A stretch of DNA of 64,000 nt, from positions 3,233,121 to 3,297,120 of the forward strand of contig CP104013.1 of assembly GCA_025839675.1 (NCBI GenBank), given 5' to 3'. This DNA is from Candidatus Lokiarchaeum ossiferum (GTDB lineage: Archaea > Asgardarchaeota > Lokiarchaeia > Sigyniarchaeales > Promethearchaeaceae). A program made the translations under genes and the position numbers. Positions 28,507 to 57,295 of the stretch are shown piece after piece (position 1 is the stretch's first letter; every line of letters begins with the position of its first letter). The notes beneath the pieces are model-generated. The model saw only the letters and a program-made list of their open reading frames with translations. It made no database searches and was not told the DNA's origin.

Positions 28507-29127
28507 ATGACAATGGAAAAAAAATTCGGAGAAGTATTCGGGAAATATAGAATTACAGACAAAGAATTTTGGTTTAAAACCAATGAGAAGGAATATCGAT
28601 TTCCCGTAAAGGATGTGAGGATTGAAATTCAAAGACCCAAATATTCAGGACCCTTCTATTTTGTTCAATATAACGACAAATCCATTGATTTGGAGGATCT
28701 GAGGACTTATTGCTCAGAAATAAACAAAAGTCTTTTGAAATATCATGTATTCATGAAAAAAAAGAAGTATATCCGGATCATCAAAGAATTAGTCTCTGAA
28801 TTAAAAGAAGGGGATGAAGTAAAACTCGAGGAAGCCCTTAGTGTGGTTAAGGAAGAATATAAAATTTTACATGCAAAGGAGATTCGGGGAGTGTCCAAAA
28901 AAGTTTGGTCTAAACATCCTCAACGAACAATCTTAATTCCCGATTCCTTTCTTGAAAATTTCTTTCGTTTAATAGGGGAACATATTTCAGGGTTTGAATT
29001 CGTGAGGTTGAAAAAAACTATTCGCATGAAGTCTGATATCTCCACTTCCCTCGATCAGATCGATGTGTTATTTGCAGACTGGGATTCGAATCCCCAAAAA
29101 TATAAAAAAAGAACACTGGTTGATTGA
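28507..29127 (+). CDS. Hypothetical protein, paralog of the C-terminal half of 32104..32856
   Basis: GFEFVRLKKTIRMKSDISTSLDQIDVLFADWD aligns with GFQYIRLKESIRYSKEILPLSANLAQLDNLFIEWD. Confidence 0.4.
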   Translation: MTMEKKFGEVFGKYRITDKEFWFKTNEKEYRFPVKDVRIEIQRPKYSGPFYFVQYNDKSIDLEDLRTYCSEINKSLLKYHVFMKKKKYIRIIKELVSELKEGDEVKLEEALSVVKEEYKILHAKEIRGVSKKVWSKHPQRTILIPDSFLENFFRLIGEHISGFEFVRLKKTIRMKSDISTSLDQIDVLFADWDSNPQKYKKRTLVD

Positions 29128-31792: not shown

Positions 31793-31870
31793 GAATCACC
31801 ACTTTATTTTAAAGGATTATAAAAAGATCACCATTGTGACAGTTATTCTTCCATTTTGAGATCCTTAAAT
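31787..31870. promoter_or_regulatory. Conserved divergent promoter/leader module, copy A (partial)
   Basis: gggcatgaatca...attataaaaagatcaccattgtgacag, the same block as at 37098, 41036 and 45001. Confidence 0.5.
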
Positions 31871-32103
31871 GAGCAACAGTTATTCTTCCATTTTGAGCAT
31901 CATTATATTGAGAGTCAGTTGACTCGTACCATCCCACCTTCGGCTATTTTATCGATCACTTCGCAAGGGATTGAGTTTTTGCAAATTCATGAAATTAATT
32001 TTGATCGAATTAGGGACTTTTTTATCCTAATTGATAAAGAAAAATCTGACTGTCGATTATTAATTCACAACTTTTATTTTCTTCTTCAACAGAGTTAATT
32101 TTC

Positions 32104-32856
32104 ATGGGAAAAAATGCACTCTTTGATGCTCTTCACACCTACTGGAAAACAGAAAGTAAAAAATATAACGGAAATGTACAAAGTAGGCAAAGTTTTGAAG
32201 ATTATCAAAAAGAAACTTTTTCTCGAATTTTAGGAGTTAACATGTTGCAAGAAAACATTTTTACGTCCGATGGAGTAAATCTTGCATGGGAAAAACGGAG
32301 TTCTAAAGAGTTGATGGAATATCAGTATCGATATCAGCCCATCCAAATTAAGAAAGGGCCAAATGTTAAAATATGGCAAGACCAACTGACTTTTTCTGGA
32401 GAAAGAGGAACTCATACCCATCCTTTACTGGGTTTAAATAAAATCCCCGAGATAATTCAGAATGGTGCATTTGATCGTATTCCAGATCATTATATGAAGA
32501 AAATTCAAAACTTTCTAACACCCAAATTATTAGCTGCTGAAAAACAAAAACTAATCAAGTTAATAAGTGAATTATTTGGAGAACTCATGCCGGGCGATGA
32601 AATTCCGCTCGTTCAAGCTGAAAAAATCATAAGACAAGAATTTTCATTCAATACTCTGACATCCAAGGATATTCTTGGATTTTTAAAAGAAATCGGAACA
32701 AAACTCAATGGATTTCAGTATATACGATTGAAAGAATCTATTCGGTATAGCAAAGAAATCCTTCCATTATCAGCCAATCTTGCTCAATTGGATAATTTGT
32801 TCATTGAATGGGATCAAGCAATACAAACTAACAATCACAATAAGAAGAAGAAATAG
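32104..32856 (+). CDS. Hypothetical protein (paralog family with 28507..29127)
   Basis: See the paralog alignment above. Sits directly upstream of the stand-alone peptidase-domain gene. Confidence 0.4.
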   Translation: MGKNALFDALHTYWKTESKKYNGNVQSRQSFEDYQKETFSRILGVNMLQENIFTSDGVNLAWEKRSSKELMEYQYRYQPIQIKKGPNVKIWQDQLTFSGERGTHTHPLLGLNKIPEIIQNGAFDRIPDHYMKKIQNFLTPKLLAAEKQKLIKLISELFGELMPGDEIPLVQAEKIIRQEFSFNTLTSKDILGFLKEIGTKLNGFQYIRLKESIRYSKEILPLSANLAQLDNLFIEWDQAIQTNNHNKKKK

Positions 32857-32861
32857 TTGAA

Positions 32862-33530
32862 TTGGAAACATTCACCCCAAGTTGGGAAAATTATTACTAT
32901 CGATTTTTCGATGGCTTAGGATATGATGTTGTTCATGTATATACAGGATATACTCGAAATCAGTTTTATAATGAACTTTATCAATGGACACCTCTCATTC
33001 AATGGGATGATGAATTGTTTATTATGATCCAAGGGCACGGGCTTGTGATGGATGATGAAGAAGAGACACCTTTACCGTATTTTACTCTCTATGATGGAGA
33101 TACTTTATATAATGGAGATAATGGTGAAATTTCAGGACAAGACTTCATAAATCGATTGATGTTATTTAGTGCTTTGAGGAAATGTGTATTTTTTGATACT
33201 TGCTATGCTGGAAAAGTGTTAGAAAGTTTTAATTCCGAAATTACCAAAGTTTTTCAAACTACTGATGCTACTCATGCAGCTGTGATGACATGCACTTATT
33301 ATGATGAAGCAATCGAAAATGCAAAATGGGAGAAAAGAAATACTCGGTTGGCAATTTTTTTTTTCCAAACTTTGAGTGCAACAACTTTAAGTGAGGATGG
33401 AATCTTCAATTATTTTCAGTTAGAACTAGCTTTAGAATCGTTATTACCATGGAATGATTTTTGTTACCAAGGAGGCACAATTCTGAATCCAGGTTGGAAT
33501 TTTTTGACTAAATATGGAATGTTATCATAA
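32862..33530 (+). CDS. Stand-alone caspase-like (clan CD-type His/Cys dyad) peptidase-domain protein
   Basis: A hydrophobic strand plus QGHG (LFIMIQGHG), then about 57 aa later a hydrophobic strand plus DxCxAG (KCVFFDTCYAG). About 80% identical to the C-terminal 220 aa of 41250..44498. Confidence 0.5.
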   Translation: METFTPSWENYYYRFFDGLGYDVVHVYTGYTRNQFYNELYQWTPLIQWDDELFIMIQGHGLVMDDEEETPLPYFTLYDGDTLYNGDNGEISGQDFINRLMLFSALRKCVFFDTCYAGKVLESFNSEITKVFQTTDATHAAVMTCTYYDEAIENAKWEKRNTRLAIFFFQTLSATTLSEDGIFNYFQLELALESLLPWNDFCYQGGTILNPGWNFLTKYGMLS

Positions 33531-33558
33531 TATTTGGGATATTAAACAATATTTCCCT

Positions 33559-33891
33559 CTATTTTTTTTTTTTAATAGCATTTTTTAATTCCCCAAAGGA
33601 GGTTTCTTTTCGCTTGTTATCATACCAACGTAAACTCCCAGTAAATCTTGACCCATGGTACCAAGTATCTAATAACTTTTTTCCTCCCAGTAAGTGGTCC
33701 CATGATTTTAGTATTTTTAATTCTTTTACGGTTCTTTTAGCAATGCATGAGTTACAGAAATAGATAGGAAGCGAAAAATAAGGGGTGTTTTCCGATGTTT
33801 GTTCGTTTACCGTGATAAATGGGTCCATATCAGTATACCATCTATGGCAAAAGTAGCATAGATTTTTGGAAGGTTCCTCATTTTTGACCAT
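33559..33891 (-). CDS. Small CxxC...CxxC zinc-binding protein. The start is probably the internal Met (MVKNEEPSKN), not the track's 33984.
   Basis: Aligns with paralog 44526..44864 from MMAKNKVPSKNLCYICQQW. The track's N-terminal 31 aa overlap the decayed PIN-like stub. Confidence 0.4.
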   Translation of the reverse strand: MVKNEEPSKNLCYFCHRWYTDMDPFITVNEQTSENTPYFSLPIYFCNSCIAKRTVKELKILKSWDHLLGGKKLLDTWYHGSRFTGSLRWYDNKRKETSFGELKNAIKKKK

Positions 33892-33959
33892 CAATACTAA
33901 TAAGATGGGTTGACAATTGAATTTTTTGGAGAATTTAGGATGCTCAAATAGGCATGAAC

Positions 33960-34187
33960 CTAAAAGATGTTGTTCATGAAACACCCGTAGTGTTGTTCAT
34001 CGAGAGCAAACTTCGCCGACGGGACCGAAAGGGTAAAAAGTTCCTGGAATGTGGATGGGAGGACATTCAATCCATGAAGAAAATCCACGGTGGTCGGATG
34101 GTGATCTAAGGATTCCAGCATGTGACAATTCTCGCTGTCCGTTAAATGTTCTGTGGGGCAGGAGCCACCGTGATCTACCTGTGGCAA
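33960..34187 (-). pseudogene. Decayed N-terminal fragment of the PIN-like cassette gene
   Basis: DSENCHMLESLDHHPTTVDFLHGLNVLPSTFQELFTLSVPSAKFALDEQHYG aligns with LENCHVLEPLPHHPKVVDFLRGLNVPPRILPDLYTLSVPAAKLALYEQHYG. The stretch is GC-rich like the intact gene and is truncated at 75 aa. Confidence 0.45.
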
Positions 34188-34563: not shown

Positions 34564-35442
34564 TTGAAGGTATACAAAATGAACGAAAACCGATTGAAAA
34601 CTAAAAATACAATAACGCCTTTGCTAGGCTTTGTATTTTTATTTCTCCTGCTTGCAGGACAATTTTCCGAAGGAAATGCCGCCTATCAACCTCCGGTGGA
34701 ACCTCCTGAAGTAAATTTGAATGCGCCGTCTACCGTCATCGCGGGAACCTCCTTTACTGCCTCTATCTATATCCAAAATTATCCCGGAAGCAGTTATGGG
34801 TATGTTCAATGTTATGAAAATGGTGTATGGCAAAATGTCAAACGAGTTACGATCTCCTCGTCCCATGTGAGTGTGAGTCTTCCGACGAGCCCATACTATG
34901 AAAGATCAGTTTTATATCGCGTAAGGTATCGGGCTCCTTCTCGTTGGATTTACAGTAATACGGATAGCGTCAAAATTAATTTTGGTAGAACAATGTATCT
35001 TGAAGGACGAACTTGGGAAAAACAAATTCGTGATCAAAGCGGATTAAATGATTATTATGCGAGTGAATCCCATCACTACACTTGGGCTGCAAATACCAAT
35101 GAAATTTCGGTGAGTACTACTGGGATAAATTATAACAGGTTTATTGGAATGTCCACAACTTTTGTCGCTCAAAGCACGAGTATTCGAATTGACTTCGATT
35201 CCAAAGAATCGACGAACAAATATAGCGGAGTAGGCCAATATTCAATTATTTATGATCTCGATTGGGAAGTTGTTGGTTGGCTCTACTTTAGCGATTCCAC
35301 TTCCTATACTCATCACACTCACTTGTTTACAGAATTAGATGTAGGACAATCCTACTACTATTTTCATGCAAGTCGCGATAATTCCGTTTATCAAGGGTTC
35401 ACAATTACTTCCAAGAATTTTGTGTTGGATTTAACCCCTTAA
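34564..35442 (+). CDS. Secreted beta-rich protein, tandem paralog 1
   Basis: Signal peptide. AAYQPPVEPPEVNLNA...IQNYPGSSYG...RWIYSNTDSV...FVAQSTSI is shared with the next gene. Confidence 0.45.
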   Translation: MKVYKMNENRLKTKNTITPLLGFVFLFLLLAGQFSEGNAAYQPPVEPPEVNLNAPSTVIAGTSFTASIYIQNYPGSSYGYVQCYENGVWQNVKRVTISSSHVSVSLPTSPYYERSVLYRVRYRAPSRWIYSNTDSVKINFGRTMYLEGRTWEKQIRDQSGLNDYYASESHHYTWAANTNEISVSTTGINYNRFIGMSTTFVAQSTSIRIDFDSKESTNKYSGVGQYSIIYDLDWEVVGWLYFSDSTSYTHHTHLFTELDVGQSYYYFHASRDNSVYQGFTITSKNFVLDLTP

Positions 35443-35446: not shown

Positions 35447-36349
35447 TTGGAGGAACAAACAATGACAAAAACAAATTTAAGCAAATCAAAAACGATGATT
35501 CGTGTCCTAGGAACTTTAGTGGTGTTCATGACTCTATTTGGGGAAATGTCGGGGGTTTTAGCTGCCTACCAACCTCCCGAAGAACCTCCGGAAGTGAATT
35601 TTAATGCTGCATCCTCCGTCGAAGCGGGAAAGACTTTTTCCGCAACCGTAGCAATTCAGAATTATCCTGGAAGTAGTTATGGAAATGTTCAACGATATGA
35701 GAGTGGGACCTGGCGAAATGTAAAAAGTGTGAGTTTTTCATCCTCCTACATGACTATCAGTGGAATCCCAAGTCATACTTTTCAAGGATCCGCTTCCTAT
35801 CGATTAAAATATCGTCATAATGGACGATGGATTTATAGTAATTCTGACAGTGTGAATGCCTATTTCGGAAGAATTATGTATGTGGATGGAATTGCTTGGA
35901 CCAAAGAAGTACGGGATCTTTGGGGTTGTTTTGATTATTATGCGACTGATGCTTCCAAGGTAGATTGGACCGTGTCGGGGAATGAAATACGAGTCGAACA
36001 AGTCTCCTATTCTGGTAGAACTTTTGGAATGTCCACGAATTTTGTTGCCCAAAGTACAAGTGTCAAAATCAGCGTTGATGAGCGAAGTACCTGCTATCCA
36101 GGGTATGCATTGACCCCGGCGGTTCGTGTATATAAATCAAATTGGGGCTATCCCATCGTTAACAATGAACATCCTATTATCGATAAAGAATATTTCACCC
36201 AGTCAAGTAATTACGTCTACTCAGAAAAAATCCTTTCAGGTTTAACAGTAGGTGAAACATACAATATCTATCTTTGTTATCAAGATACTCATGGGTACGT
36301 GGATTTTACCATGTATTTCAAGAACATAGTGATTGACACTACGCCCTAA
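35447..36349 (+). CDS. Secreted beta-rich protein, tandem paralog 2
   Basis: AAYQPPEEPPEVNFNA...IQNYPGSSYG...RWIYSNSDSV...FVAQSTSV. Confidence 0.45.
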   Translation: MEEQTMTKTNLSKSKTMIRVLGTLVVFMTLFGEMSGVLAAYQPPEEPPEVNFNAASSVEAGKTFSATVAIQNYPGSSYGNVQRYESGTWRNVKSVSFSSSYMTISGIPSHTFQGSASYRLKYRHNGRWIYSNSDSVNAYFGRIMYVDGIAWTKEVRDLWGCFDYYATDASKVDWTVSGNEIRVEQVSYSGRTFGMSTNFVAQSTSVKISVDERSTCYPGYALTPAVRVYKSNWGYPIVNNEHPIIDKEYFTQSSNYVYSEKILSGLTVGETYNIYLCYQDTHGYVDFTMYFKNIVIDTTP

Positions 36350-36373: not shown

Positions 36374-37102
36374 TTAATAATTTTCGACCATGCGTTCCCA
36401 CTTCGTTTTCCTAGGATATTTGGATTGTATTAGAGTCTTTTGGCGCGCTTTTCGTTTCCGACGTGCCTTTCCACTTTCAAAACGACCAAAATCTTCCACA
36501 AACACGGCGATGTCCGTTTCCTTTACCTGATAGGAAGGAGTTTTAAGCGAGGACGGAAGAGCCGATCGATCAAATTTCCGATGATAGACCCGCCCCATCT
36601 CCTCTAAAATATTCGCTGAGAGAATGAAGGTCACACTCGGATTGGATGTAAACATCTGTCGAATCCGCTCCCGTTGTGATCGCTGGTGATCACAAAAATG
36701 CAGCAGGATATTGGAATCGATCAAAACCATTGCATCCGCGGGTAAGTTGGCAATGTCTTCGGGCCAATAGGCTTCATAGTCCAAAAATTCCCGGAGGTTG
36801 ATCAACAGATGATGATCCAAAGACGCCACCCCCCATTGGTTTTCGGCGGCCAGATAGGCCACGATCCAATCATCCACCCCAAAGGCCAAGGGACGATAAG
36901 GATGTTGTTCTTGAATAACCCCGTAATGTTGCTCATAGAGGGCTAACTTTGCGGCAGGCACCGAGAGCGTATAGAGGTCAGGAAGAATTCGTGGAGGTAC
37001 ATTTAAACCTCGGAGAAAATCTACAACCTTCGGATGATGGGGGAGAGGCTCCAACACATGACAATTTTCGAGACAGAAGGGAAACTCGGCAAAGGGGGGC
37101 AT
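36374..37102 (-). CDS. PIN-like nuclease-domain protein with an unknown N-terminal domain and a basic tail. This is the intact copy of the cassette gene.
   Basis: The C-terminal half has the PIN-like acidic quartet: VLIDSNILL (D), ILEEMG (E), ETDIAVF (D), VEDFGRF (D). The tail is RRKRKARQK. The gene looks markedly GC-richer by eye than its surroundings. Confidence 0.35.
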   Translation of the reverse strand: MPPFAEFPFCLENCHVLEPLPHHPKVVDFLRGLNVPPRILPDLYTLSVPAAKLALYEQHYGVIQEQHPYRPLAFGVDDWIVAYLAAENQWGVASLDHHLLINLREFLDYEAYWPEDIANLPADAMVLIDSNILLHFCDHQRSQRERIRQMFTSNPSVTFILSANILEEMGRVYHRKFDRSALPSSLKTPSYQVKETDIAVFVEDFGRFESGKARRKRKARQKTLIQSKYPRKTKWERMVENY

Positions 37103-37270
37103 GAATCATCTTTTGGTTTCTAAGAAACTATAAAAAGATCACGATTGTGACAGAATTGAGATTTGCGAGTGGTTTTTATAGATCAAAAGCAGTAGTATGG
37201 ATGTAACCATTTGAATACAAAAGGATGAAATGACAAAAGTGGCATTCAAACTTTAGTCCACATCTCTTTA
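37098..37270. promoter_or_regulatory. Conserved divergent promoter/leader module, copy B
   Basis: A TATA-like ctataaaaag (37128) abuts the dyad tcacgattgtga. An oppositely oriented ggtttttatag (37171) follows. The conserved leader ends about 85 bp before the ATG at 37356. Confidence 0.5.
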
Positions 37271-37355
37271 AGACCTAAGGATAATTTTCAGAAAATGTAT
37301 TCGAAACTGGAAACATGAAATTACTAATAACGCAAAACCAAAAAGTGAAAAAAAT

Positions 37356-41035: not shown

Positions 41036-41190
41036 ACCTATAAAAAGATCACGATTGTGATAGTTGTGCAAATTGCGAGTGGTTTTTATAGATCAAAAGC
41101 AGTATTATGGATGTAACCATTTGAATACAAAAGGATAAATGGACAAAAGTGAGAAACCGATTTTTGTTCCACATCTCCTTAATAGTAATT
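41036..41190. promoter_or_regulatory. Conserved promoter/leader module, copy C (lacks the minus-gene stub)
   Basis: cctataaaaagatcacgattgtgatag...ggtttttatagatcaaaagcagtattatggatgtaaccatttgaatacaaaaggat. Confidence 0.5.
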
Positions 41191-41249
41191 TTTCAATATC
41201 CTTTTTGTATTCTACTTGAACAATATTTAAAAGAAAAAAGGTAAACATA

Positions 41250-44200
41250 ATGAATCAAAAAAAAAGACTGCTATCGTTATATGCGTTGCTTCTTTTGACC
41301 TGTTCCGCCTTAATATATACTAATATGGGAACTGGGGTCGCAGAAATCAATATTTCAGAATGGACAAATGTGCCAAATTATGGTCCTTCGGAATTATCCA
41401 ATTTCATGGATGAAGATCGAGGGGAGGTAATGAAAATATATGATGCCGGATGGGGATTAGTCCAAAAGGATATAATTCCGCAATATATTGCAGGAAACAA
41501 AATTTGGTATTCCTATTGCGTGAAAGTAACTGGTGGGGAATCGAATGATTATGGGGGGGTGAATTTAAGCCCATCTACCATCAACACTGGGGCCGTAGGA
41601 ATGCGAATTCATGCGGGAACGAGTTTAAAATATTGGCTTGGAGATGGACAAGAGCATGATACATTCATTGACGTAGAAACAGATCAATGGTACCACATAG
41701 GATGTTCATATGAGTCTGATGGTCAATTCGAAGCATATTTGGATGGGGAGATGATCCTTTCAGAACAAGCCAAGCCTATCAGCAATTTAAATTATGTTTA
41801 TGCTGCAACATGCTCCCAATCAACTTTTCTGGATGATATCTATGTTGGAGTTTCTAAGGATGAAGCATTTAATAGTTTCCAAGATGAAGTAACTACCATA
41901 CTAATTGATGATTTTTCGGAAGATTCGATTGGGTTTTTACCCTTAGATTGGGAACTAACTGCAGGCGGATATTCATCTTTTAGAACTGTAGAACTAGCCG
42001 AATCTCCATATGATCAGGTTTTAAGAATCTATGATTATGGACAAATTCCCACCGTATACTCAAAAGTGGAAAAAAAAATTCCCGCTGGTTTTGGATCTAT
42101 TGAATGGGATTTAAAAACAGATTCACCAGGAAATAATAATGGTTATTTCGGATTGATGGAAGGGGATAATTGGTTGATATCGATTGGGATAATAAATAAT
42201 CAATTCAGAGTTTATTACCACAATGATCATGCTTCGTATAGTGTCTACGACACAAACGTTGTTGCTTCAAATCAATGGACCCACCTTAAAATGGAGTATG
42301 ATGGCGAGCAAGATGATTGTCGAATATTTGTTAATGGGGTTGAGGTAAGAAGTACACCATTCAATACAAAATATGCCTCTTTTGTTGATGGTCTATATTT
42401 ACACTCAGGAGAAACTGGATCTGGAAAAAGTTATTATGACAACATTCAAGTGAACTGGGTAAAACAGCGTGTGGATTCTTTTATGGAATATGCTGGCATT
42501 ATCAATTTTGATGATAGTTACAATCAAGATCCTCTAGCAAGCTGTCAAGAATGGTCTTCCGATGTTAATTCGGGCTATCAAATCCTAGATGCAGTGACCA
42601 CACACTCAAGTGTATTGGCAATAACCGATTTAGTTTCTTCTTCGAGCTGCTTTACAAAACTAAACATTAATACTCCTTTAGGGGTTGGAGGCTGTGTAGA
42701 AGGATGGATATCTGGATCGAGTATCATAAATAATGCGTATATGGGCATTAATTTTGGGGATAATTACTGGTTATTGTCCGTGGGGATCAATAATGGTCAT
42801 TTTAAAGTTTATCATCGAACGAGCTATTCAACATATAGTACCGCTGTTTCTACCATAGAAGCAAATCCAAATCAATGGTATTTTGTTTGTTTATATTATG
42901 ATGGTATGTCTGATATTTGTACTGTATCGATAAATGGTGTTACTATTGGACAATATAGTCTTTATGACGTTGCTGGAATTACATCAATATATCTCCATTC
43001 GGGAGAAAATGGGGGGGGTACAAGTTACTATGACTCAATTTCGTATGATTGGGCAAATGAATATGATGCAGGAGATGCAAGAATAATAGACTTCGATAGG
43101 GACCATTTAAGCCACAAGTATGAAGAGACCCATATTTATGAATCTGGATTAAAAACTTCTCCTTGGAAATGTGATTCTGATAATGATAGGGTAAATGATT
43201 GGGATGAAATCTGTGGTATCTACGGATATATTACTGATCCAACTCGGATTGACTCTGAACCGATTGGATCTGAAGATGGGCTGAATGATTATTTAGAATT
43301 ATTTAGATATCATACCGATCCAACTCACTATGATTCTGACCGTGATGGGCTGACTGATGGAGATGAAGTCAACTTATATGGCACCGACCCGACCACGGCG
43401 GATTCGGATGGGGATGGGTTGACCGATGGGGAAGAAATAAATGGGTATGATATGATGTATCTAGACGAGCTTTATCATGAACATAAATATGCAACATATT
43501 ATACAAATCCGCTTCTTGTTGATTCAGATAATGATAATTGGAGTGATAAGCAAGAACTTGATTTGATACAAGCTGATTTAGATCAAATTCATGAACCTAA
43601 TCCTGCGGTAGATAACTATCGGTATTTAGATCCAATGTGCCGAGATAGTGATTTAGATTTTCTTCCCGATGGATGGGAAGAATATTATGGACTCGATCCT
43701 TGTGAATATAATTCAGAGCTGGAATTAATCGAAAACAATGTTCCTGATATATATTATTTCTTTGCGCCAATTCAAGAACCAGATCAAGAACGGGTCTCGG
43801 GATTGCGAATTGCCTTGATATTCATTAATCCAGACATAGTTTCGCCAAGTTGGGCAAATTATTACTCTCGAGTCTTCGATAAGCTAAATTATGATGTAGT
43901 GCATGTTTATACAGGTTACACCCGAAATCAGTTTTATAATGAATTGTATCAGTGGACACCCCTTATTCAAGCGGATGATGAATTATTTATAATGATCCAA
44001 GGACATGGGCTGGTGGAGGACAATGAAGAAGAAACTCCGTTGGCGTATTTCACTCTTTATGATGACGATGAGGTGTTTGACCAGGATGTTGGTGAAATTT
44101 CGGGACAAGAGTTTTTAAATCGATTGAAGTTATTTAGTGCCTACAGGAAATGTGTGTTTTTTGATACCTGTTTCGCTGGAAAAGTGCTTGAAAATTTCGA

Positions 44201-44498
44201 TTCGGAAATAACTAAAGTCTTTCAAACTACTGATGCCACCCACGCACAGTATAGAACAGTCAGCAAATTTGATAAGATTATGCAGAATGCTAAGTGGGAG
44301 AAAAGAAATACTTATGTTGCATCATTTTTCTGGGATACTTTAGGTGCAACCACTCTAAGTGAAGATCCAATTTTCAAATATATTCAGGCGGATTTGGCAT
44401 TTGGTTCTCTTTTACCGTGGAGTCGAACGGGTTATCAAGGAGGAACTATTTTGAATCCGGGCTGGAATTATTTGGAACGTTATAATATATTTGTCTAA
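41250..44498 (+). CDS. Giant secreted LamG/jelly-roll protein with TSP3-like Ca-binding repeats and a C-terminal caspase-like peptidase domain
   Basis: Signal peptide. WYHIGCSYESDG.FEAYLDGEMI is LamG_3-like. DSDGDGLTDGEE is present. The C-terminus has LFIMIQGHG ... KCVFFDTCFAG. Confidence 0.55.
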   Translation: MNQKKRLLSLYALLLLTCSALIYTNMGTGVAEINISEWTNVPNYGPSELSNFMDEDRGEVMKIYDAGWGLVQKDIIPQYIAGNKIWYSYCVKVTGGESNDYGGVNLSPSTINTGAVGMRIHAGTSLKYWLGDGQEHDTFIDVETDQWYHIGCSYESDGQFEAYLDGEMILSEQAKPISNLNYVYAATCSQSTFLDDIYVGVSKDEAFNSFQDEVTTILIDDFSEDSIGFLPLDWELTAGGYSSFRTVELAESPYDQVLRIYDYGQIPTVYSKVEKKIPAGFGSIEWDLKTDSPGNNNGYFGLMEGDNWLISIGIINNQFRVYYHNDHASYSVYDTNVVASNQWTHLKMEYDGEQDDCRIFVNGVEVRSTPFNTKYASFVDGLYLHSGETGSGKSYYDNIQVNWVKQRVDSFMEYAGIINFDDSYNQDPLASCQEWSSDVNSGYQILDAVTTHSSVLAITDLVSSSSCFTKLNINTPLGVGGCVEGWISGSSIINNAYMGINFGDNYWLLSVGINNGHFKVYHRTSYSTYSTAVSTIEANPNQWYFVCLYYDGMSDICTVSINGVTIGQYSLYDVAGITSIYLHSGENGGGTSYYDSISYDWANEYDAGDARIIDFDRDHLSHKYEETHIYESGLKTSPWKCDSDNDRVNDWDEICGIYGYITDPTRIDSEPIGSEDGLNDYLELFRYHTDPTHYDSDRDGLTDGDEVNLYGTDPTTADSDGDGLTDGEEINGYDMMYLDELYHEHKYATYYTNPLLVDSDNDNWSDKQELDLIQADLDQIHEPNPAVDNYRYLDPMCRDSDLDFLPDGWEEYYGLDPCEYNSELELIENNVPDIYYFFAPIQEPDQERVSGLRIALIFINPDIVSPSWANYYSRVFDKLNYDVVHVYTGYTRNQFYNELYQWTPLIQADDELFIMIQGHGLVEDNEEETPLAYFTLYDDDEVFDQDVGEISGQEFLNRLKLFSAYRKCVFFDTCFAGKVLENFDSEITKVFQTTDATHAQYRTVSKFDKIMQNAKWEKRNTYVASFFWDTLGATTLSEDPIFKYIQADLAFGSLLPWSRTGYQGGTILNPGWNYLERYNIFV

Positions 44499-44525
44499 AT
44501 TTCGGGATAGTGAGTAGTTTTGCTC

Positions 44526-44864
44526 TCACTTTTTTTTTATTTCTTCTGCATTTAATGAATCCCCAAAAATGATTTCCTTACGCTTTCTATCAACCAACCG
44601 CAAATTTCCCGTAAATAAGGGCATATGAAGCCACGTATTTAATAATTTTTCCCCTCCCAGTACATGATCCCATGATTTTAATATTGTTCTTTCGTTTTTC
44701 GATATTTTCGCAAGGCACGAGCTACAAAAAAAAATAGGTAATGGATATGGAATGGAATTATTGGGTCTTTTTTCGGTTACCGTAATAAATGGGGACATAT
44801 CAGCACGCCACTGTTGACATATGTAACATAAGTTTTTGGAAGGTACTTTGTTTTTGGCCATCAA
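44526..44864 (-). CDS. Small CxxC...CxxC zinc-binding protein (cassette partner)
   Basis: LCYICQQW...FFCSSCLAK. Paralog of 33559..33891. Confidence 0.45.
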   Translation of the reverse strand: MMAKNKVPSKNLCYICQQWRADMSPFITVTEKRPNNSIPYPLPIFFCSSCLAKISKNERTILKSWDHVLGGEKLLNTWLHMPLFTGNLRLVDRKRKEIIFGDSLNAEEIKKK

Positions 44865-44934
44865 TGTTAGCTATGAAGGGCAGACTATTGAAATTTTTGG
44901 CGAACTTCTACTCCTTGGTCTTTCTGAAATTCAC

Positions 44935-45165: not shown

Positions 45166-45230
45166 CCTCTTCCATTCCTCACCTTGATTTTCTGCCAAAA
45201 GTTCTTCAATGGGATACAGTGTGATAAAAA

Positions 45231-48029
45231 ATGTTGGATAAAAATAAAAAAGGCAAGAAGAAATTGTCCTTGGGATCTAAAATCGGAATGTGCCTCTTCA
45301 TTGTTGCGATGATCTCTACCAATAGCCCAAATCTGATAAAAAGCGCTTCAGCAATTTCCGTGAATGATTGGGAATTAAATCCTGAATGGGAAGGGTGGGA
45401 AGAGGATTCTACTCTTGGAAATCAATATACACGCGTCGCTGAATATTCAGATTTAGGCTCACGAGATCCGGTGTTGGGACTCCGCGATGGTTCCTATTAT
45501 GGAGAAGCGAAAATAAAGAATGAATTTCCCAACCAACCTGCGGGGGCTTTTTCCACCGAATTGAAAATCGTTGAAACCTCTTATGGAAATGAGGATTGTT
45601 CTTTTATTCGATTTTATTCAGGAACAACAATTGCTGCTGCTTTAATTATTGATAATAATTTTAGATATGCTCCTGACCAAGGAGTATCCGATGCCCCTAT
45701 AAGATCGATCAATGTGGAATTGGAGACGTGGTACCACTTTGCTGCTGAATGGAATAGTCAAGCAACTGGAACTAATGAGTGGACATTTTACATTAACGGT
45801 CAAATTATTGCTCAGTTCGATTCGACCAATCCGTTTTCAGGAATTAATAATATCACAATTAGTACATATCTTGGCGATATAACTCATAATCTGACCTTAC
45901 ATAACCTACGACATATGGATGATTCTTCCACAATTAACCAAATTTGGGAAGAAGATAAATTTTTTGAATGGACTAGCGGTGGGACGAATCAATGGTGTCA
46001 TATTTCGACTAACATTTTTGAAGATCGAAACGTGTTAAAACTAAACGATGGTTCATGGGTCGGGGAAGCAATCGCAACAGCGAACTTTGATTTATCCGAA
46101 AAGGGATCGTTTTCTACAAATATTCGAATTGTTGATTCTGGTTATGGAGAAACAGATTGTTTCCTAATTAGATTTCTCTCAGGATCGACTGTGAGCAGCT
46201 ATATGACCATGTGGGAAGATCAAGGTGTAAATACGATCAGATTTTGTGGATCTGACGGCAATTCTTACCCCACAGGATCAACATACTCTACTAATGTGTG
46301 GAATGATGATTTCAAAGCCGAATGGGATTGCTCAGGAAGTGGTAAAGACCAATGGGTTTTTTCTCTGGGAGGCACAGTAATAAAGACATTTGAATCTGAA
46401 AAATACACTTCAGGAATTAATCAAATTTCGATTCGCTCTTTATATAGCAAACCAACCAATTATGTCTATTTTAATGATATTCAAATCGATTCGGATGATG
46501 ATGGTCTATCACGTAAAGAAGAATTGCTCTTTGGCACCGACCCGACCACGGCGGATTCGGATGGGGATGGGCGCGAGGACGGGGTGGAGATTAGATATAT
46601 GACAAATCCTATAATAAATGAAGTCTTTTGGGAAGATTTTGAAGAAATTTCTTTACCAAGTGGATATATTGATAATGGAGATACTATCGGAGAGTGGCAA
46701 GTGGCTAAAGATAATGATGATTTTTGTGATCTATATGTCGATCAGAGTCCAAGCTATTGGGGAGAATCTTCTCAAGTTTTATGGCTTCATACTACTGATG
46801 AAAGTCTCATTGATATTTATAAAAATGATATCGCTTCATCTGGAGATAATTTGGTTTATTTTCGCTCCTCTATTAGTATAGGACAGCTTCAGTATCAACA
46901 GTTTTATGTTGATTTTACCTATGGAACTTCTTCACGCTTGCATTTTCTGTTTTCTAGTGGAGAATTATTTTTCTGGGATTCCTATTATATATATGGGAAA
47001 CACCTTACTGCTTATAAACCTGTATATGATGCAGCGAGCAATGTTGTTGTTTATAGTGAAGATCAAAAAATTGATTTCGAAGTATTCATTGATAAGGACC
47101 AATCCACTTGGACTCTGAAATGGAATGGACAAGCAATAATGAAGCAATATGATCTTGATTTTGGTAATACTTTTAATCGAGTGATTTTAGGCACACCATC
47201 AACATCTTCTGGACGAGTTTTTCTTGATGATCTCGTTTTTGAACATGGGAAAATCACTAAAGATGATTCGAAGACCTTATACAATAAAATAGTTCCGAAT
47301 ATAGTCGCCTGTTTACCTGGGTTCAATGAGGAATTCTCTGAAGATTCTATTGGCGATACTAGCCTTGTAGGATTAGAAATATCATCAATCGTTTCTCGAG
47401 ATACTGAGTATTCCTTCAATTTTCCTTTTGTTTCAGTTAGTTATGATGATGAAATTGAAACGGGTCCACATCATGATGAGGTTCGAACAATTGGTCAAGA
47501 ACATTGGTATTGGTACTATAAAATTTATGGAGATATTGAATTTTACTCAATCGACTTAACAGAGTATTCATATTCTGCTTCCTTTTTGGCATTTTATTCA
47601 TTTGACCCATATTCAACTCAAAACACCGTACTTACCAATCATCCCTATTCAGATCTCCGCGATGATTGCTCGTATTTAAATCAGGAAACATTTGATTATT
47701 GGGTCCAGCCATCATATACTTCTGAATACTCTTGTCCTCAACAATACACGGATTCTGGGAGTCAAACTCAAAAAGGATGGGATTACACCATTAGTAAACA
47801 AACCACATTAGGATTGAATTTTGAGTTATCCTTTGCCACACCAGTCCAATCAATTTCTCTTCCCCTTGGCATATCTTTTGCATTCAATGTTGAACGAGAT
47901 TTAGATTTCTGGTACTATCTGATATTGAAAGATACCCATACTTCTACTAAATCAGTAACTTATAATATGAATGCCAATGTAGCTAAAGGTTTTTATACTT
48001 TTTTTATTAGTGATTTTAAGATTCACTAA
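45231..48029 (+). CDS. Giant secreted LamG/jelly-roll surface protein with one TSP3-like Ca-binding motif
   Basis: Signal/anchor region (KIGMCLFIVAMISTNSP). Repeated ETDCFLIRF..G motifs. DSDDDG...DSDGDGREDG. Confidence 0.55.
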   Translation: MLDKNKKGKKKLSLGSKIGMCLFIVAMISTNSPNLIKSASAISVNDWELNPEWEGWEEDSTLGNQYTRVAEYSDLGSRDPVLGLRDGSYYGEAKIKNEFPNQPAGAFSTELKIVETSYGNEDCSFIRFYSGTTIAAALIIDNNFRYAPDQGVSDAPIRSINVELETWYHFAAEWNSQATGTNEWTFYINGQIIAQFDSTNPFSGINNITISTYLGDITHNLTLHNLRHMDDSSTINQIWEEDKFFEWTSGGTNQWCHISTNIFEDRNVLKLNDGSWVGEAIATANFDLSEKGSFSTNIRIVDSGYGETDCFLIRFLSGSTVSSYMTMWEDQGVNTIRFCGSDGNSYPTGSTYSTNVWNDDFKAEWDCSGSGKDQWVFSLGGTVIKTFESEKYTSGINQISIRSLYSKPTNYVYFNDIQIDSDDDGLSRKEELLFGTDPTTADSDGDGREDGVEIRYMTNPIINEVFWEDFEEISLPSGYIDNGDTIGEWQVAKDNDDFCDLYVDQSPSYWGESSQVLWLHTTDESLIDIYKNDIASSGDNLVYFRSSISIGQLQYQQFYVDFTYGTSSRLHFLFSSGELFFWDSYYIYGKHLTAYKPVYDAASNVVVYSEDQKIDFEVFIDKDQSTWTLKWNGQAIMKQYDLDFGNTFNRVILGTPSTSSGRVFLDDLVFEHGKITKDDSKTLYNKIVPNIVACLPGFNEEFSEDSIGDTSLVGLEISSIVSRDTEYSFNFPFVSVSYDDEIETGPHHDEVRTIGQEHWYWYYKIYGDIEFYSIDLTEYSYSASFLAFYSFDPYSTQNTVLTNHPYSDLRDDCSYLNQETFDYWVQPSYTSEYSCPQQYTDSGSQTQKGWDYTISKQTTLGLNFELSFATPVQSISLPLGISFAFNVERDLDFWYYLILKDTHTSTKSVTYNMNANVAKGFYTFFISDFKIH

Positions 48030-48752: not shown

Positions 48753-49435
48753 ATTTGCTCTAGAGATGCCCTACTATTTATGTTTGTTGCTTGGTTTAAG
48801 TTCAATTATGTATCCATGATATATAAGTGAAGTATGATAGATCGATAAATTATATTTATAAGGATGCGTTTCATACAATTATGTATCAAACACAGATCAA
48901 GCACGAGTAATGCTGATTCTTTTTGAACATGTCTTCCGAGTTTATAAGTTTCAAAAAGTAATTACAGTATCATAAATCTGGAAAAACAGATCTGTTTGGT
49001 AACCTATAGATTAGCGACAAACGTCCCAAGAGGTCTCATTATGTCTCAAAAACCTAGAATATCAATAACAACAGGGCAAAGGTCAACATCCTGTGTCAAT
49101 CCTACCAAGTCTCCGTCAGAACCGCACGGATCTCCCATATCTGCCATCAATCCATTGGCAGATCAATCGCTTTCTCCTTCTGGATCTAAATTTTATTATC
49201 AGTATTTTAACGATCAAAATCATATTGAATGTTTTTGAACGTGAGCGATTATTATGGGAAAGCACTCATGAGGAACTCAGCTACTTACTTTTACATGTAT
49301 CCAATAAAAATGACCTTATATCATCTCTATCAACAAAAAAGAGCTTCAAAATTAAAGGATCAGATAATCTTACCTTATGCTAGATTTCAATAAAAAATCA
49401 TGATCAGATTTAATTTTGGAATATTAGAAAAAGAT

Positions 49436-52384: not shown

Positions 52385-53179
52385 ATGAATAATATAATTC
52401 CTCAAGAACGAAATATTTTAATTGTACCAATTGGATTAGAAATAGACCGCGTAATTGCAGGATGCAAACTATATCCAATTAATGTTATATATCTCTTACA
52501 TAATCCGCTTGTGGATTCAACCAAATTTGCAGTAGAACGATATTCAAGTTATTTTGCAAAAGAAGTTAAGAATAGGATAGGGAGTTCTTTCAATAAAATA
52601 GAAGAAGAAATTACAAATTTAGGTTCTTTTCATGATTCATTAACATGTTTGAACAGAATAATGAAATTGGAAGAAAAAATAGAAAGATTGGGACATATCT
52701 ACATAAATATATCGACAGCATCAAAAACCTTCGCAATGGCAGCTTATTTATTTGCAAGTAGAAAACCAGAACTTTTCACCTTATTCTATTTACAATCAAA
52801 CAAATACATCCTACTAGAGCATTTTAATAAAGAAAATTCTTCTTTGGATAAACTGGAAGAAGAATTTAGAAAATCTGGTTTAACTCAAGGCGATTTTGAA
52901 GTAGAAGAAATTCCAATTTTGAAAACAGAATGGTTCAATAAAGAGGAAGCAGAAATTTTACGTATTTTCGATGGAAATAGATCTTTTGATTCATTATTGG
53001 AGTTGATAGCTAATCTGAAACAGGAAAATAATCCAAAAAACAGAATGAAGATCAGAAGAATACTTAACAAATTTGAAGATCTTGGAATCATTCAGATGAA
53101 AAAACGTGGAAAAAATTTAATTATAACTCCTACAAAAAAACACAGCAGTATTTCAAATATGACTGGAGTTTTTTACTAA
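52385..53179 (+). CDS. Putative regulator with an N-terminal Rossmann-like (CARF/Csa3-like or DUF6293-like) domain and a C-terminal winged helix
   Basis: ILIVPIGLEIDRVIAG...INISTASKTFAMAAYLFA is the Rossmann-like core. The C-terminal EAEILRIFDGNRSFDSLLELIANL...LNKFEDLGIIQMKKRGKNLIITPT is wHTH-like. Confidence 0.3.
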   Translation: MNNIIPQERNILIVPIGLEIDRVIAGCKLYPINVIYLLHNPLVDSTKFAVERYSSYFAKEVKNRIGSSFNKIEEEITNLGSFHDSLTCLNRIMKLEEKIERLGHIYINISTASKTFAMAAYLFASRKPELFTLFYLQSNKYILLEHFNKENSSLDKLEEEFRKSGLTQGDFEVEEIPILKTEWFNKEEAEILRIFDGNRSFDSLLELIANLKQENNPKNRMKIRRILNKFEDLGIIQMKKRGKNLIITPTKKHSSISNMTGVFY

Positions 53180-53668: not shown

Positions 53669-56600
53669 TTAGCCTCGTATTGTTGAAATAGTCATGAAAT
53701 TTGAAGTAAATCTTCCATCTAATGGTTGGTTCGTACCATCAATGCTCATATAGAAACCTGTAGTTATTTCGAAATTAACAATATAGGAAATTGCACTAGA
53801 TTCAGAAACTAGATCAGTAAAGAAATGCTTCATTGTTATTTCTCCATTAAAATATTTCGCTGGATTCATTGTCAAATATCGTGAACCTAAATCAAAATCC
53901 CAAGAAAAATAGTTCCCTTGAATTGATTTTGTTAGAAAATTTGGTTGAAAAGCAGAAACCATCCCACCTCCAACATTTAATGCGCCAACTAACTCGTCTA
54001 ATGGCCCTAAGGGACCATCTGCTATATTACTACCGAATAGTAATAATAATTCAAAAATTGCATAGGCCTCTGTTCCGACGCTTGCATCATATTCATCACC
54101 AAGATTGATACCATCGGTCTCATAATTGATTTCAGCATCCCCTGAACTGGTCCTGGACACATCAAGGTCCAATGGATGTACTGGAACACCATCAATAAGA
54201 ATTCCCATTGATATGGTTAATCCTTGAAGATATGCCCACACATCGAAACCATTATAGTCTGGATGATTGATCTTCGTAGATTCAACACCAGTTTGGAACC
54301 TTAAATCAACTTCTCCATTTGTAGCACTAAAATCATGAAAACCTCCATCTTCTTCAAGCAAACCCCAATCATATTGGAGACCAAAATGACCTCCCAAATA
54401 TCCAGAGCGAGGATCTGAACTGGAAAATTCGTGTTTGGGTCCAGCCGTCATATCATCATGTAAATTATAATAATTATTATCAAGAAATTGATAGGTTGTT
54501 GGATTAGAATAGCAATTTTCATAATAATTAGAGATTTTTCCAAATTTGATGTTATCTACAAGAATATCTTGGGTTCCTTTAAAATAGAAACTTAAATAAC
54601 TATACGAACTATCAGGAAGAACAGCTATCATAGGATAAGACACACGGCTTACCCCATCAATTCGAAAATCATAAGTATTGGTGTATCCATTCATTTCGAC
54701 TTGAATGTTGTATAATGAATTCGGAGACAACTCTATTTGCTGAATTTTCTCACCTGTAGGAGTGAAAAAACCGATACTGTATCCATAAAACTTTATAAAT
54801 AGATTATAGTTCGTCTGAGGAATCATATTTGACCAGCCTAATTGTAACCACATTTCATCTATTCGAGTGCTTGTAAATAAATCAAAGCTAATTACATTAT
54901 TCTCAAAATTCTTTGAAGGATACACTTTTTTATTGAATCCCATAAATCCTTCAGACACATGGACCTTTAAGGCTTTTGAAGATTCTGTACCAAAGCCAAC
55001 AGAATCTGCAACTACTTCAGTATATTGGTTTGAATTTTCTGAGAAACTAATTTCCCATCCATCTGGATTTGATCCGATGCTATCATATTCAAAATGTCCA
55101 ATATTCCAGCTTAAATCACCTCTGTCGTACCCATTTTTAGGATCTGTTTTAAAAATTTTCACTTCTAATCCATCATTGAACCCATCCTCATCCGAATCAG
55201 CATCCATCGGGTCGGTACCCAAGGCAATTTCTTCCCCATCTAAAAGTCCGTCATCATCCGAATCAGAATCTAAAGGATCCAATCTATTTGATGAAATAAT
55301 CACATTATCTAGGTAAGTACTATATCCAGAATAACTGTTATAAGTTTCAAAAACAACACGTGAAATATAGGAAGCAGGTGAATAAAAAGCAAGATTTGAA
55401 CCTATAGAGGAGGAACCTAGGAAAACCGAAAATGTATCCGTTGCAGTATCCCAACTGATTTTGAGATCTTTTTTCCATTCATTACTCGCAATATTTTCCA
55501 ACAAATGCCAAGAAGATCCGTCGTGATACTGCAGCCCATTATGGCCTCCATAACTTACAATTGCCATTAGAATTGCATTTGAACTACCTTGCCGTAAGAG
55601 TATATAAGTTATTTTCGCAGTATCAGTGGACATAATATCAAAAATCATTGATCCTTTTGTAGTATATTCAAAATTTTCATAAATACCTGCAGAACCTGTT
55701 CCATGATCATACAATATAGCAGTATCATCATTCGGCCATGCTCCTGATCCAACGATGCATCCAGACCCTTGAATTTTCGTCCATCCTCCAAAAGGATTTT
55801 CATTCGCAGGGAATTCCCAAGAATTTAACTCGCGATTTCCATTTATATATGAAAATTCCACACAATCGCTTAATCCATCGTTGTCAGAATCAGAATTTGT
55901 TGGATCAGTATGTTCTCTAATTATAACATCGTCCACGTAGGCAGAATAACCGGTTTGGCTACTATAGGTTTGGAACTGCATTCGAGAAATGGAGCTGACA
56001 GGATTATAGAAATCAAGGTTTTCAAATTTTTCTCCCGAATCTGGAAAATATATATTACAGGTGTCTGATAAGGTGTTCCATGATATCTTGATAGATAACC
56101 AATCAGTATAGCTACATTCTTTCAACAAATTCCATTGGGTACCATCATGATATTGTATGCCATCTCCTTCTGCTGTACGATAATTTGCCATTAATATCGC
56201 ATTTGTGCTTCCTTGCTTCAAGAGAATATAGGTTAATTTAAAATTCGCATCAGTCCTGAATTCGAACTCCGCTGAACCAGAAATTAAGGAAGAATCAAAA
56301 TTAGCATAAATTCCAGCGGTTCCCGTGCCATAATCATAAAGGCGAACGGCATTTGGATACGGCGTATTAACGCTATCTACCACTGCACAACCGGATCCTG
56401 TAACGATGTTCCAATCCATCCCTAAGTCATCATCTACGCCATTATCTGTAAAATCCCAATCATAGAGTAAATTACTTCCTCCGATTCCACACATCTCATC
56501 AAAATCGGTCAATCCATCCCCGTCAGTATCGAAATCCTGTTCATAAAGAATTTCCATTTCCTCTTCAGAGAATGCTCTATTAAACAAACCAATTTCATCA

Positions 56601-57295
56601 ATTTTTCCATCAAACCATCGATTATCAGCTGATCGATAGGTTCCGATATTCATGCTAGTAATCGGTTCTAAAGATCCACCTGTGGAGACTTGTCCTTCCA
56701 ATTGACCGTTTAAATATAATTTAAATCCATTGGTAGTATCTTTCTGATAAGTTGCCGCTAATTGATACCACTGGTTTGGAACAATTATTGTGGTTCCTGA
56801 AGCGACTCGCGTACTTGAATCTCTAAGATATCCTTTTGCAATGGGTGTTGGACCTTTTTCGATGCATATCGAAATGGACCACAATGGGGTTGTTTCTAAT
56901 ATAAAGCGCCTACCTTCTAATCCCCCTCCTCCTCCATCCCATTTAAACCATGCGGAGATTGTATATTCTGTAGAACCATCGGGAAGAGTCTTATGTGGCA
57001 CCGAAACATAATCATTGGAACCATCAAAATTATAACAAGAACTTGATCTTCCCAACCGATCGGTGGCAGGGGTTGCACCATGAAAAACACCATTAAAATC
57101 GTTTACAGGCTCATTAGCATTTCCATCCAAATCCCACCGCGCATATAGATCATCAGCATAAGATAGAAGAGCGGAACTTGGTTGTAGAAATTGTTGAATA
57201 GTTAAGGGTAAGCACAAACATATCAACAAAGTGGCAGTAATTTTTGTTTTATATTTCATTTTTCTCATTTTTGAGTTGTTTTCTATTCTTATCAA
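53669..57295 (-). CDS. Giant secreted LamG-domain surface protein with duplicated internal modules and a TSP3-like Ca-binding motif
   Basis: Signal peptide. Textbook LamG_3-like region (ATDRLGRSSSCYNFDGSNDYVSVPH...NQWYQLAATY...LYLNG). Internal repeats (ILL(K/R)QGSTNAILMA). DADSDEDGFNDG. Confidence 0.55.
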   Translation of the reverse strand: MIRIENNSKMRKMKYKTKITATLLICLCLPLTIQQFLQPSSALLSYADDLYARWDLDGNANEPVNDFNGVFHGATPATDRLGRSSSCYNFDGSNDYVSVPHKTLPDGSTEYTISAWFKWDGGGGGLEGRRFILETTPLWSISICIEKGPTPIAKGYLRDSSTRVASGTTIIVPNQWYQLAATYQKDTTNGFKLYLNGQLEGQVSTGGSLEPITSMNIGTYRSADNRWFDGKIDEIGLFNRAFSEEEMEILYEQDFDTDGDGLTDFDEMCGIGGSNLLYDWDFTDNGVDDDLGMDWNIVTGSGCAVVDSVNTPYPNAVRLYDYGTGTAGIYANFDSSLISGSAEFEFRTDANFKLTYILLKQGSTNAILMANYRTAEGDGIQYHDGTQWNLLKECSYTDWLSIKISWNTLSDTCNIYFPDSGEKFENLDFYNPVSSISRMQFQTYSSQTGYSAYVDDVIIREHTDPTNSDSDNDGLSDCVEFSYINGNRELNSWEFPANENPFGGWTKIQGSGCIVGSGAWPNDDTAILYDHGTGSAGIYENFEYTTKGSMIFDIMSTDTAKITYILLRQGSSNAILMAIVSYGGHNGLQYHDGSSWHLLENIASNEWKKDLKISWDTATDTFSVFLGSSSIGSNLAFYSPASYISRVVFETYNSYSGYSTYLDNVIISSNRLDPLDSDSDDDGLLDGEEIALGTDPMDADSDEDGFNDGLEVKIFKTDPKNGYDRGDLSWNIGHFEYDSIGSNPDGWEISFSENSNQYTEVVADSVGFGTESSKALKVHVSEGFMGFNKKVYPSKNFENNVISFDLFTSTRIDEMWLQLGWSNMIPQTNYNLFIKFYGYSIGFFTPTGEKIQQIELSPNSLYNIQVEMNGYTNTYDFRIDGVSRVSYPMIAVLPDSSYSYLSFYFKGTQDILVDNIKFGKISNYYENCYSNPTTYQFLDNNYYNLHDDMTAGPKHEFSSSDPRSGYLGGHFGLQYDWGLLEEDGGFHDFSATNGEVDLRFQTGVESTKINHPDYNGFDVWAYLQGLTISMGILIDGVPVHPLDLDVSRTSSGDAEINYETDGINLGDEYDASVGTEAYAIFELLLLFGSNIADGPLGPLDELVGALNVGGGMVSAFQPNFLTKSIQGNYFSWDFDLGSRYLTMNPAKYFNGEITMKHFFTDLVSESSAISYIVNFEITTGFYMSIDGTNQPLDGRFTSNFMTISTIRG

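Follow-up and report, generated by a model that had tools for sequence, protein, structure and literature searches.

The closest described counterparts of the domain reported here are the prokaryotic orthocaspases and type I metacaspases of MEROPS peptidase family C14 (PF00656), such as MaOC1 of Microcystis and GSU0716 (PDB 3bij). A p10 domain with a conserved calcium-binding Asp defines metacaspases as opposed to orthocaspases, archaeal members of C14 are rare (archaea account for 93 of the 11,208 p20 proteins of prokaryotes), and archaeal C14 proteins with additional domains at the N- or C-terminus have been documented (PMC6426788). In bacterial defence, caspase-like proteases paired with small effectors are known (PMC12642450). 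Here we describe two copies of a caspase-like domain encoded in a 64,000-nucleotide stretch of the genome of the Asgard archaeon Candidatus Lokiarchaeum ossiferum B-35 (contig CP104013.1, positions 3,233,121 to 3,297,120; hereafter the window): one copy is a stand-alone protein of 222 amino acids (aa), the other forms the C-terminus of a giant protein of 1082 aa. None of the literature that we searched links Lokiarchaeum or Asgard archaea to orthocaspases or to this protein, or describes a C14 protein in L. ossiferum, a cultured Asgard archaeon. Taken as a whole, we consider it reasonably probable that the domain is of C14 type, that it is complete in an exported giant and that its second, truncated copy is maintained.

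Two copies of a C14-like domain

The two genes, the domain and the remaining giant genes of the window are located as follows.

32862..33530, plus strand: stand-alone gene NEF87_002771, 222 aa, with a TTG start; C14-like domain without strand beta1 or a signal sequence
41250..44498, plus strand: giant gene NEF87_002778, 1082 aa, with a signal-like N-terminus, LamG-like domains (Laminin_G_3), calcium-binding TSP3-type repeats and a C-terminal C14-like domain
43806..44498, plus strand: complete C14-like domain in the giant, from strand beta1 (RIALIFI, residues 853-859) through the stop codon
37356..40841, plus strand: giant with a signal-like N-terminus
45231..48029, plus strand: giant with a signal-like N-terminus
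53669..57295, minus strand: giant with a signal-like N-terminus

Both proteins were identified by exact look-up, and their UniRef names are 'Caspase family protein' (222 aa) and 'LamG-like jellyroll fold domain-containing protein' (1082 aa). The sequence of the locus is 100% identical in three independent public read-set assemblies, and the structure of its open reading frames (ORFs) is therefore not an assembly error. In BLASTP the 222-aa protein aligns without a gap to residues 862-1080 of the giant (159/219 identical, 73%, E 6e-111). This bears out the homology proposed in an earlier reading of the window made from its letters and ORFs (the sequence-only reading), at a lower identity than the roughly 80% claimed there. 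Both copies carry the two motifs that it named, LFIMIQGHG and KCVFFDTC(F/Y)AG, with His59 (codon 33036-33038) and Cys114 (codon 33201-33203) in the stand-alone protein and His919 (codon 44004-44006) and Cys974 (codon 44169-44171) in the giant. Searching the window by tblastn, and all of its 199 six-frame ORFs by hmmsearch with three profiles, yielded no third copy; only the two ORFs match, and the giants at 37356, 45231 and 53669 indeed lack the domain, as had been stated.

An exhaustive HMMER search with a two-sequence profile against 1.84 billion cluster representatives returned only three other proteins at E<1e-3 (E 6.5e-5 to 6.7e-4), all of them Pfam Peptidase_C14 proteins (E 5e-18 to 1e-13). 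The alignment with these remote proteins spans the His strand (F-S-G-H-G versus I-Q-G-H-G) and the Cys strand (D-[AT]-C-x-[SA]-G). When the pair was compared by hhalign with an alignment of 15 C14 proteins alone, the match had a probability of 97.6% (E 2.8e-12, 147 columns), with the alignment reaching only a W-E segment after the Cys strand. A hidden Markov model (HMM) built from C14 proteins only, run with filters off on the same 199 ORFs, scored the stand-alone protein at 45.3 bits (E 5.7e-14) and the giant at 42.3 bits (E 4.5e-13), the next best ORF having an E of 0.47. Our two alignments of C14 homologs, A4 and A8, have an invariant His-Gly in common; Asp-x-Cys is invariant throughout A8 and, at 90% or more, nearly so in A4. 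Both Lokiarchaeum copies read QGHG and DTC(F/Y)AG, in register with the catalytic His and Cys of the C14 homologs; conservation of these residues in homologs, which the sequence-only reading had set as a test, is thus what we find.

Wider searches placed the domain at a distance from everything else. A word-indexed search of a 5.8-billion-protein set with the domain alone returned only the protein itself and, with bridging sequences added, 14 ordinary C14 proteins. DNA-pattern scans of genome and metagenome contig collections found no relatives of the domain, PADLOC and PHROGs scans gave no match for either copy, and a PDB sequence search with the domain gave none at E<=10. The best match among curated models is NCBIfam NF047832 (caspase, EACC1-associated type), at E 1.3e-5 and below the model's threshold. 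A check against peptidase profiles, as had been suggested, therefore has a split outcome: homology to C14 proteins is significant by HMMER, hhalign and the C14-only HMM, but the curated Pfam and NCBIfam thresholds are not reached. No sequence or structural similarity was found that is closer to C80, C25, C11 or C13 than to C14. Judged by these comparisons, both sequences are best described as highly divergent representatives of the caspase-hemoglobinase fold whose nearest family is C14, of the orthocaspase/metacaspase type.

The fold predicted by AlphaFold2 (AF2) is in agreement with this independent sequence evidence. The model of giant residues 830-1082, computed from a 16-sequence alignment, has a mean predicted local distance difference test score (pLDDT) of 55.9 and a predicted template modelling score (pTM) of 0.60, with pLDDT values of 65-86 in the N-terminal half. 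Its elements run in the order beta1 (RIALIFI, 853-859)-alpha1-beta2-alpha2-beta3(GHG)-hairpin-alpha3-beta4(CVFFDTC), and it contains the caspase-type central sheet with beta1 and the alpha/beta/alpha sandwich of clan CD. Fold comparison with this model gave the following scores.

Metacaspase-4: 12.1
Caspase-1: 12.0
MALT1: 11.9
Metacaspase-9: 11.3
Yca1: 11.2
GSU0716: 11.0
Legumain-type ligase (OaAEP1), legumain, GPI8: about 10
SAVED-CHAT: 9.8
Gingipain: 8.5 and 7.3
Clostripain: 7.1
Separase: 6.7

The model of the stand-alone protein (pLDDT 54.4) matches the same families. A clan-CD fold, the other test that had been set, is hence found in the structure prediction, in the order beta1 to beta4(DTC) and from a partly circular input. 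Sequence profiles, motif conservation and predicted fold agree, and the identification of a clan-CD, caspase-like His/Cys domain stands.

Set beside the orthocaspases, the Lokiarchaeum domain has in common with them the p20-like strand order, His-Gly, Asp-x-Cys and a conserved Trp/Glu segment past the Cys strand, and C14 proteins are the only sequence relatives that were found. It differs in falling below the Pfam and NCBIfam thresholds, with about 15-25% identity to any C14 protein and no close relatives found outside the genome, in forming the end of a LamG/TSP3 giant, and in that one of its copies lacks beta1. Unlike the eukaryotic metacaspases (AtMC4 6w8r, AtMC9 8a53, Yca1 4f6p, TbMCA2 4af8) and the paracaspase MALT1, it has no N-terminal prodomain, and no p10 calcium-binding signature is recognisable in what follows the Cys strand, a half modelled at pLDDT <50. 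The giant has its calcium-binding motifs ahead of the domain, in TSP3 repeats distinct from it, so that any link of the domain to calcium would be indirect. The MARTX/TcdB CPD (C80) and the gingipains (C25) belong to the same clan CD and likewise represent a protease module in a large exported multidomain protein that could process itself. The analogy to them drawn in the sequence-only reading holds at the level of the clan and not beyond it, with no C80 CPD among the top 60 fold matches and gingipain at 8.5 and 7.3. As for the caspase-like proteases of conflict systems (EACC1-associated NF047832, CHAT/Craspase), the likeness consists in NF047832 being the best curated match; its score, however, is far under the cutoff, PADLOC matches neither copy, and there is no NTPase or sensor domain. 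An EACC1-type defence module of protease and effector was rejected as an explanation, as there is no EACC1 or sensor domain. The ORF upstream of the stand-alone gene matches neither an EACC1 model nor any other. No defining part of the bacterial defence systems mentioned above (PMC12642450) was found at this locus.

The N-termini of all four giants are hydrophobic (15-residue Kyte-Doolittle maxima between 2.0 and 3.0), and the giants have LamG-like and/or TSP3 parts in common; their C-terminal 300-500 residues show no mutual similarity (blastp E<0.01), which indicates that the giants have modular, variable C-terminal domains. In the 1082-aa giant, canonical DxDxDGxxDxxD/E motifs are found at residue 695 (DSDRDGLTDGDE) and residue 718 (DSDGDGLTDGEE), and its TSP3_bac score is 24.5 bits versus a cutoff of 25. 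The earlier proposal that the domain sits on a secreted calcium-binding protein fits the signal-like N-terminus, the LamG part and the TSP3-type DxDxDG repeats, with secretion itself predicted from the N-terminus.

Because its N-terminus looks like a signal peptide, the giant is most likely exported, and the domain would be the C-terminal module of a LamG/TSP3 calcium-binding surface protein. Outside the cell it would most likely act as a cysteine endopeptidase with His919 and Cys974. Asp at position Cys-2 (DTC) is a feature of the Arg/Lys-specific meta-, para- and orthocaspases, whereas the Asp-specific caspases have Gln there (QAC); the DTC of the Lokiarchaeum domain suggests that it may cleave after Arg or Lys. 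The target could be the giant's own polypeptide or other extracellular or surface proteins, and autoprocessing of the giant by its C14-like domain is plausible for a member of this family.

The truncated copy, its duplicated segment and its upstream region

The stand-alone gene belongs to a duplicated segment that takes in a neighbouring gene.

32877..33936, unstranded: duplicated segment, copy 1, comprising the truncated domain and a convergent small gene
33559..33894, minus strand: small Cys-rich (CxxC...CxxC) gene, convergent with the stand-alone copy
43845..44907, unstranded: duplicated segment, copy 2, 73% identical to copy 1
44526..44864, minus strand: paralogous small Cys-rich gene, convergent with the giant gene

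At the DNA level the two copies are 73% identical over 1070 bp. The repeat starts abruptly and ends about 40 bp past the start of the opposite-strand small gene, and the sequence upstream of 32862 contains nothing homologous to the giant. Domain shuffling between cassettes, as the sequence-only reading had it, does not describe this arrangement: the breakpoint lies inside the domain and the neighbouring gene was duplicated along with it, which makes the event a segmental duplication of the 3′ end of a gene plus its neighbour and not the shuffling of a discrete domain. The 222-aa gene would be the retained 3′ part of this old duplication, together with the convergent Cys-rich gene. What had been called a stand-alone domain gene does exist as an ORF, but it is not a clean copy of the domain, since the first core strand is missing.

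The homology begins at residue 2 of the stand-alone protein, corresponding to residue 862 of the giant, three residues past beta1 (853-859). An in-frame stop at 32841-32843, followed by GAA GAA GAA ATA GTT GAA TTG, makes the TTG at 32862 the first possible start. Strand beta1 opens the domain in all full-length C14 homologs; in the caspase-hemoglobinase fold it lies inside the sheet, between beta2 and beta3, and the 222-aa protein is therefore without a core element. Its own model contains no complete core sheet, and beta2 is no longer predicted as a strand. The N-terminus is not hydrophobic (Kyte-Doolittle 15-residue maximum of 0.49, versus 2.0-3.0 in the four giants), so the protein would stay in the cytoplasm.

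The stand-alone copy is nevertheless kept under purifying selection. Between the two copies the ratio of non-synonymous to synonymous divergence (dN/dS) is 0.18 (Nei-Gojobori; pS 0.59, pN 0.185), identity at codon positions 1, 2 and 3 is 80%, 83% and 57%, respectively, and there are zero indels in 219 codons. If equal branch lengths are assumed, omega on the stand-alone branch is at most about 0.36, and in a neutral simulation with 90 substitutions the ORF was still open in 0.5% of runs. Thus, while the activity of the stand-alone protein is doubtful, purifying selection on it means that the protein does something.

The small Cys-rich pair is constrained as well, with a dN/dS of 0.31 at 58% aa identity. 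The mechanical ORF of the gene at 33559 extends to 33984, and the homology and a likely TTG/ATG start point to 33894/33891. For the small proteins there is no significant family or PDB match and none in PADLOC or PHROGs, and a DNA-pattern scan of genome contigs found no relatives; the match of the small protein to the Pfam immunity protein PoNi_C (E 0.049) is not significant. Just beyond the duplicated segment, at 33965-34135 on the minus strand, lies a 170-bp relic of the PIN-like gene 36374..37102 (minus strand), encoding residues ~12-62 of that 242-aa, weakly PIN-like protein at 68% aa identity. The region is a patchwork of duplicated cassettes, in which this relic signals repeated rearrangement.

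Upstream of the stand-alone gene, outside the duplication, lie a further ORF and a promoter-like motif that recurs in front of the giants.

32104..32856, plus strand: 250-aa ORF, directly upstream of the stand-alone gene (5-nt gap)
31817..31842, plus strand: promoter-like motif upstream of the pair formed by the 250-aa ORF and the stand-alone gene
37128-37153, plus strand: promoter-like motif upstream of the giant at 37356
41038..41063, plus strand: promoter-like motif upstream of the 1082-aa giant
near 45030, plus strand: degenerate form of the promoter-like motif upstream of the giant at 45231
57457-57482, minus strand: promoter-like motif upstream of the giant 53669..57295

The 26-nt motif, CTATAAAAAGATCACGATTGTGACAG, combines a TATA-like box with a palindrome behind it, TCAC-N4-GTGA. 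It occurs with at most two mismatches about 160-290 nt upstream of the giants 37356, 41250 and 53669..57295, and in all there are four matches at up to three mismatches against 0 expected. The motif resembles a promoter and operator common to these genes, which would make them a small regulon, and the truncated gene pair appears to stand behind the same type of promoter/operator as the giant genes. Past the motif, about 130 nt are conserved in the leaders of three giants (37154-37290, 41064-41200 and 45057-45190), including a second exact block, GTGGTTTTTATAGATCAAA, at 37169, 41079 and 45072; this conserved part may represent a leader RNA under conservation or another TATA-like element, and Rfam has no match for it. 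Right behind the motif at 31817-31842 we also noted an exact 19-nt direct repeat, GTTATTCTTCCATTTTGAG, at 31842-31860 and 31879-31897, 18 nt apart.

The TTG start of the stand-alone gene follows 5 nt after the stop of the 250-aa ORF, which is probably its operon partner judging from this layout. Translated as the second of the two cistrons, the 222-aa gene would then depend on a promoter element that the giants have as well. Two public sequencing runs, SRR32148622 and SRR32148623, contain short contigs of 1.6-1.7 kb within 32150-33884, both starting at 32150/32151, that reach from the 250-aa ORF across the stand-alone gene into the convergent small gene; they may be transcript assemblies, which would show co-transcription. 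The 250-aa ORF has no significant family or PDB match (Pfam, NCBIfam, PADLOC, PHROGs). Its C-terminal third shares 31% identity with the end of a 206-aa ORF that lies 3 kb upstream (28507..29127, plus strand) and is itself without a family match. A fusion of the 250-aa ORF with the stand-alone gene would result from a -1 frameshift at AAG AAG AAG AAA. We rejected it as unsupported: the heptamer is non-canonical, the sequence is the same in all three independent assemblies, and nothing like beta1 is seen where the 250-aa ORF ends.

Readings of the locus

Several results count against a C14-type domain that is complete in the giant and maintained in truncated form. The NF047832 score of 24.8 bits is far under the 140-bit cutoff, and Pfam Peptidase_C14 (PF00656) matches neither protein in hmmscan at E<=10, its gathering threshold not being reached. 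No orthologs were found in protein or DNA collections, and conservation can be compared only between the two paralogs. Overall confidence is low in both AF2 models (mean pLDDT 55.9 and 54.4), with values below 50 in the C-terminal half, and the input alignment consisted of C14 proteins, which makes the fold result partly circular. The acidic S1-pocket residue that metacaspases have after beta1 lacks a clear counterpart in alignment A4, and the P1 preference is therefore uncertain. In the absence of beta1 a normal caspase-type sheet would not be expected to form, making activity of the 222-aa protein doubtful, and both the TTG start of its gene and co-transcription with the 250-aa ORF are putative.

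Alternatively, the stand-alone ORF could be a relic without function, in which the 3′ remnant of a giant gene, otherwise destroyed, has by chance stayed open. It has neither beta1 nor a signal sequence, its TTG start stands right behind an in-frame stop, there are other scars nearby, such as the relic of the PIN-like gene at 33965-34135, and the promoter-like motif of the giants is found upstream, as though a giant gene had once stood there. We regard this as unlikely, given a dN/dS of 0.18 with excess third-position divergence and no indel in 219 codons, an omega of at most about 0.36 on the stand-alone branch with equal branch lengths, the mere ~0.5% of simulations in which a neutral copy stays open, and the constraint on the adjoining small gene (omega 0.31). 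For the truncated copy, 'maintained, possibly non-catalytic or partner-dependent' accordingly ranks above 'relic'. Concerning the domain itself, it might be a catalytically silent or non-proteolytic module of clan CD, either a transpeptidase or ligase, as in legumain and GPI8, or a scaffold, as in Raptor, that attaches or assembles the surface protein. The sequence profiles link the domain to C14 only, and His-Gly and Asp-x-Cys are intact in both copies, unlike in pseudo-enzymes; we find this improbable.

An altogether different interpretation starts from the giants, which have in common LamG/TSP3 parts and an N-terminus resembling a signal peptide and whose C-termini are mutually unrelated. 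In a polymorphic-effector-like cassette they would be exported carriers of exchangeable C-terminal effectors, the caspase-like domain among them, the small Cys-rich protein would be a cytoplasmic inhibitor or immunity partner, and the truncated copy with its small gene an orphan cassette as in contact-dependent inhibition (CDI) and Rhs loci. The duplicated unit is exactly a 5′-truncated C-terminal domain plus the adjacent small gene, both under purifying selection, and the very weak PoNi_C match, not significant in itself, points the same way. Against this, the small gene is convergent, where immunity genes are normally co-directional with the domain, and none of the other giants is followed by a small gene of this kind. 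At 27% DNA divergence the copies are too different to exchange sequence efficiently by homologous recombination, the breakpoint falls within the domain and not at a conserved pre-toxin junction, and the small protein has no match in PADLOC, PHROGs or the PDB and no homologs elsewhere in the genome contig scan. We give such a cassette little chance, and a very slim one to a version in which the truncated gene and its Cys-rich partner are an orphan effector/inhibitor cassette and belong to a polymorphic system of surface proteins in this Asgard archaeon. Giant LamG/TSP3 carriers under one shared promoter-operator would there bear exchangeable C-terminal effectors, including an exported caspase-type protease, for cell-cell interaction or antagonism.

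Neighbouring genes and significance

Between the stand-alone cassette and the first giant lie two tandem paralogs, 34564..35442 and 35447..36349 (both plus strand), which encode proteins of 292 and 300 aa with signal-like N-termini, 41% identical to each other and without a family match. The 264-aa protein encoded by 52385..53179 (plus strand) matches PADLOC CARF-domain models (best E 2e-15), which predict a sensor or regulator of CARF type that stands alone; neither a CRISPR array nor cas genes were noticed near it. Downstream of the 932-aa giant, about 2 kb (48030-50120) contain only short ORFs on both strands, the longest being 49093..49383 (96 aa). This part may be non-coding or degraded, and it has no tRNA or Rfam match; tRNA and Rfam scans of the window as a whole found nothing.

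Collectively, the reading of the two copies as a C14-type domain, complete in the giant and truncated but maintained in the 222-aa gene, amounts to a refinement of annotation and a curiosity: a very divergent addition to a known protease family and not a new system. With bacterial-type orthocaspases as its nearest counterparts and without close relatives, the domain says little on the origin of eukaryotic caspases and metacaspases. The truncated but maintained copy asks what a caspase-type domain can do without its first core strand. Maturation of surface proteins or extracellular protein breakdown would be candidate roles for the domain of the giant if it works as a protease and is exported. 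L. ossiferum is described as living on peptides, and extracellular protein breakdown would matter to the organism if it does.
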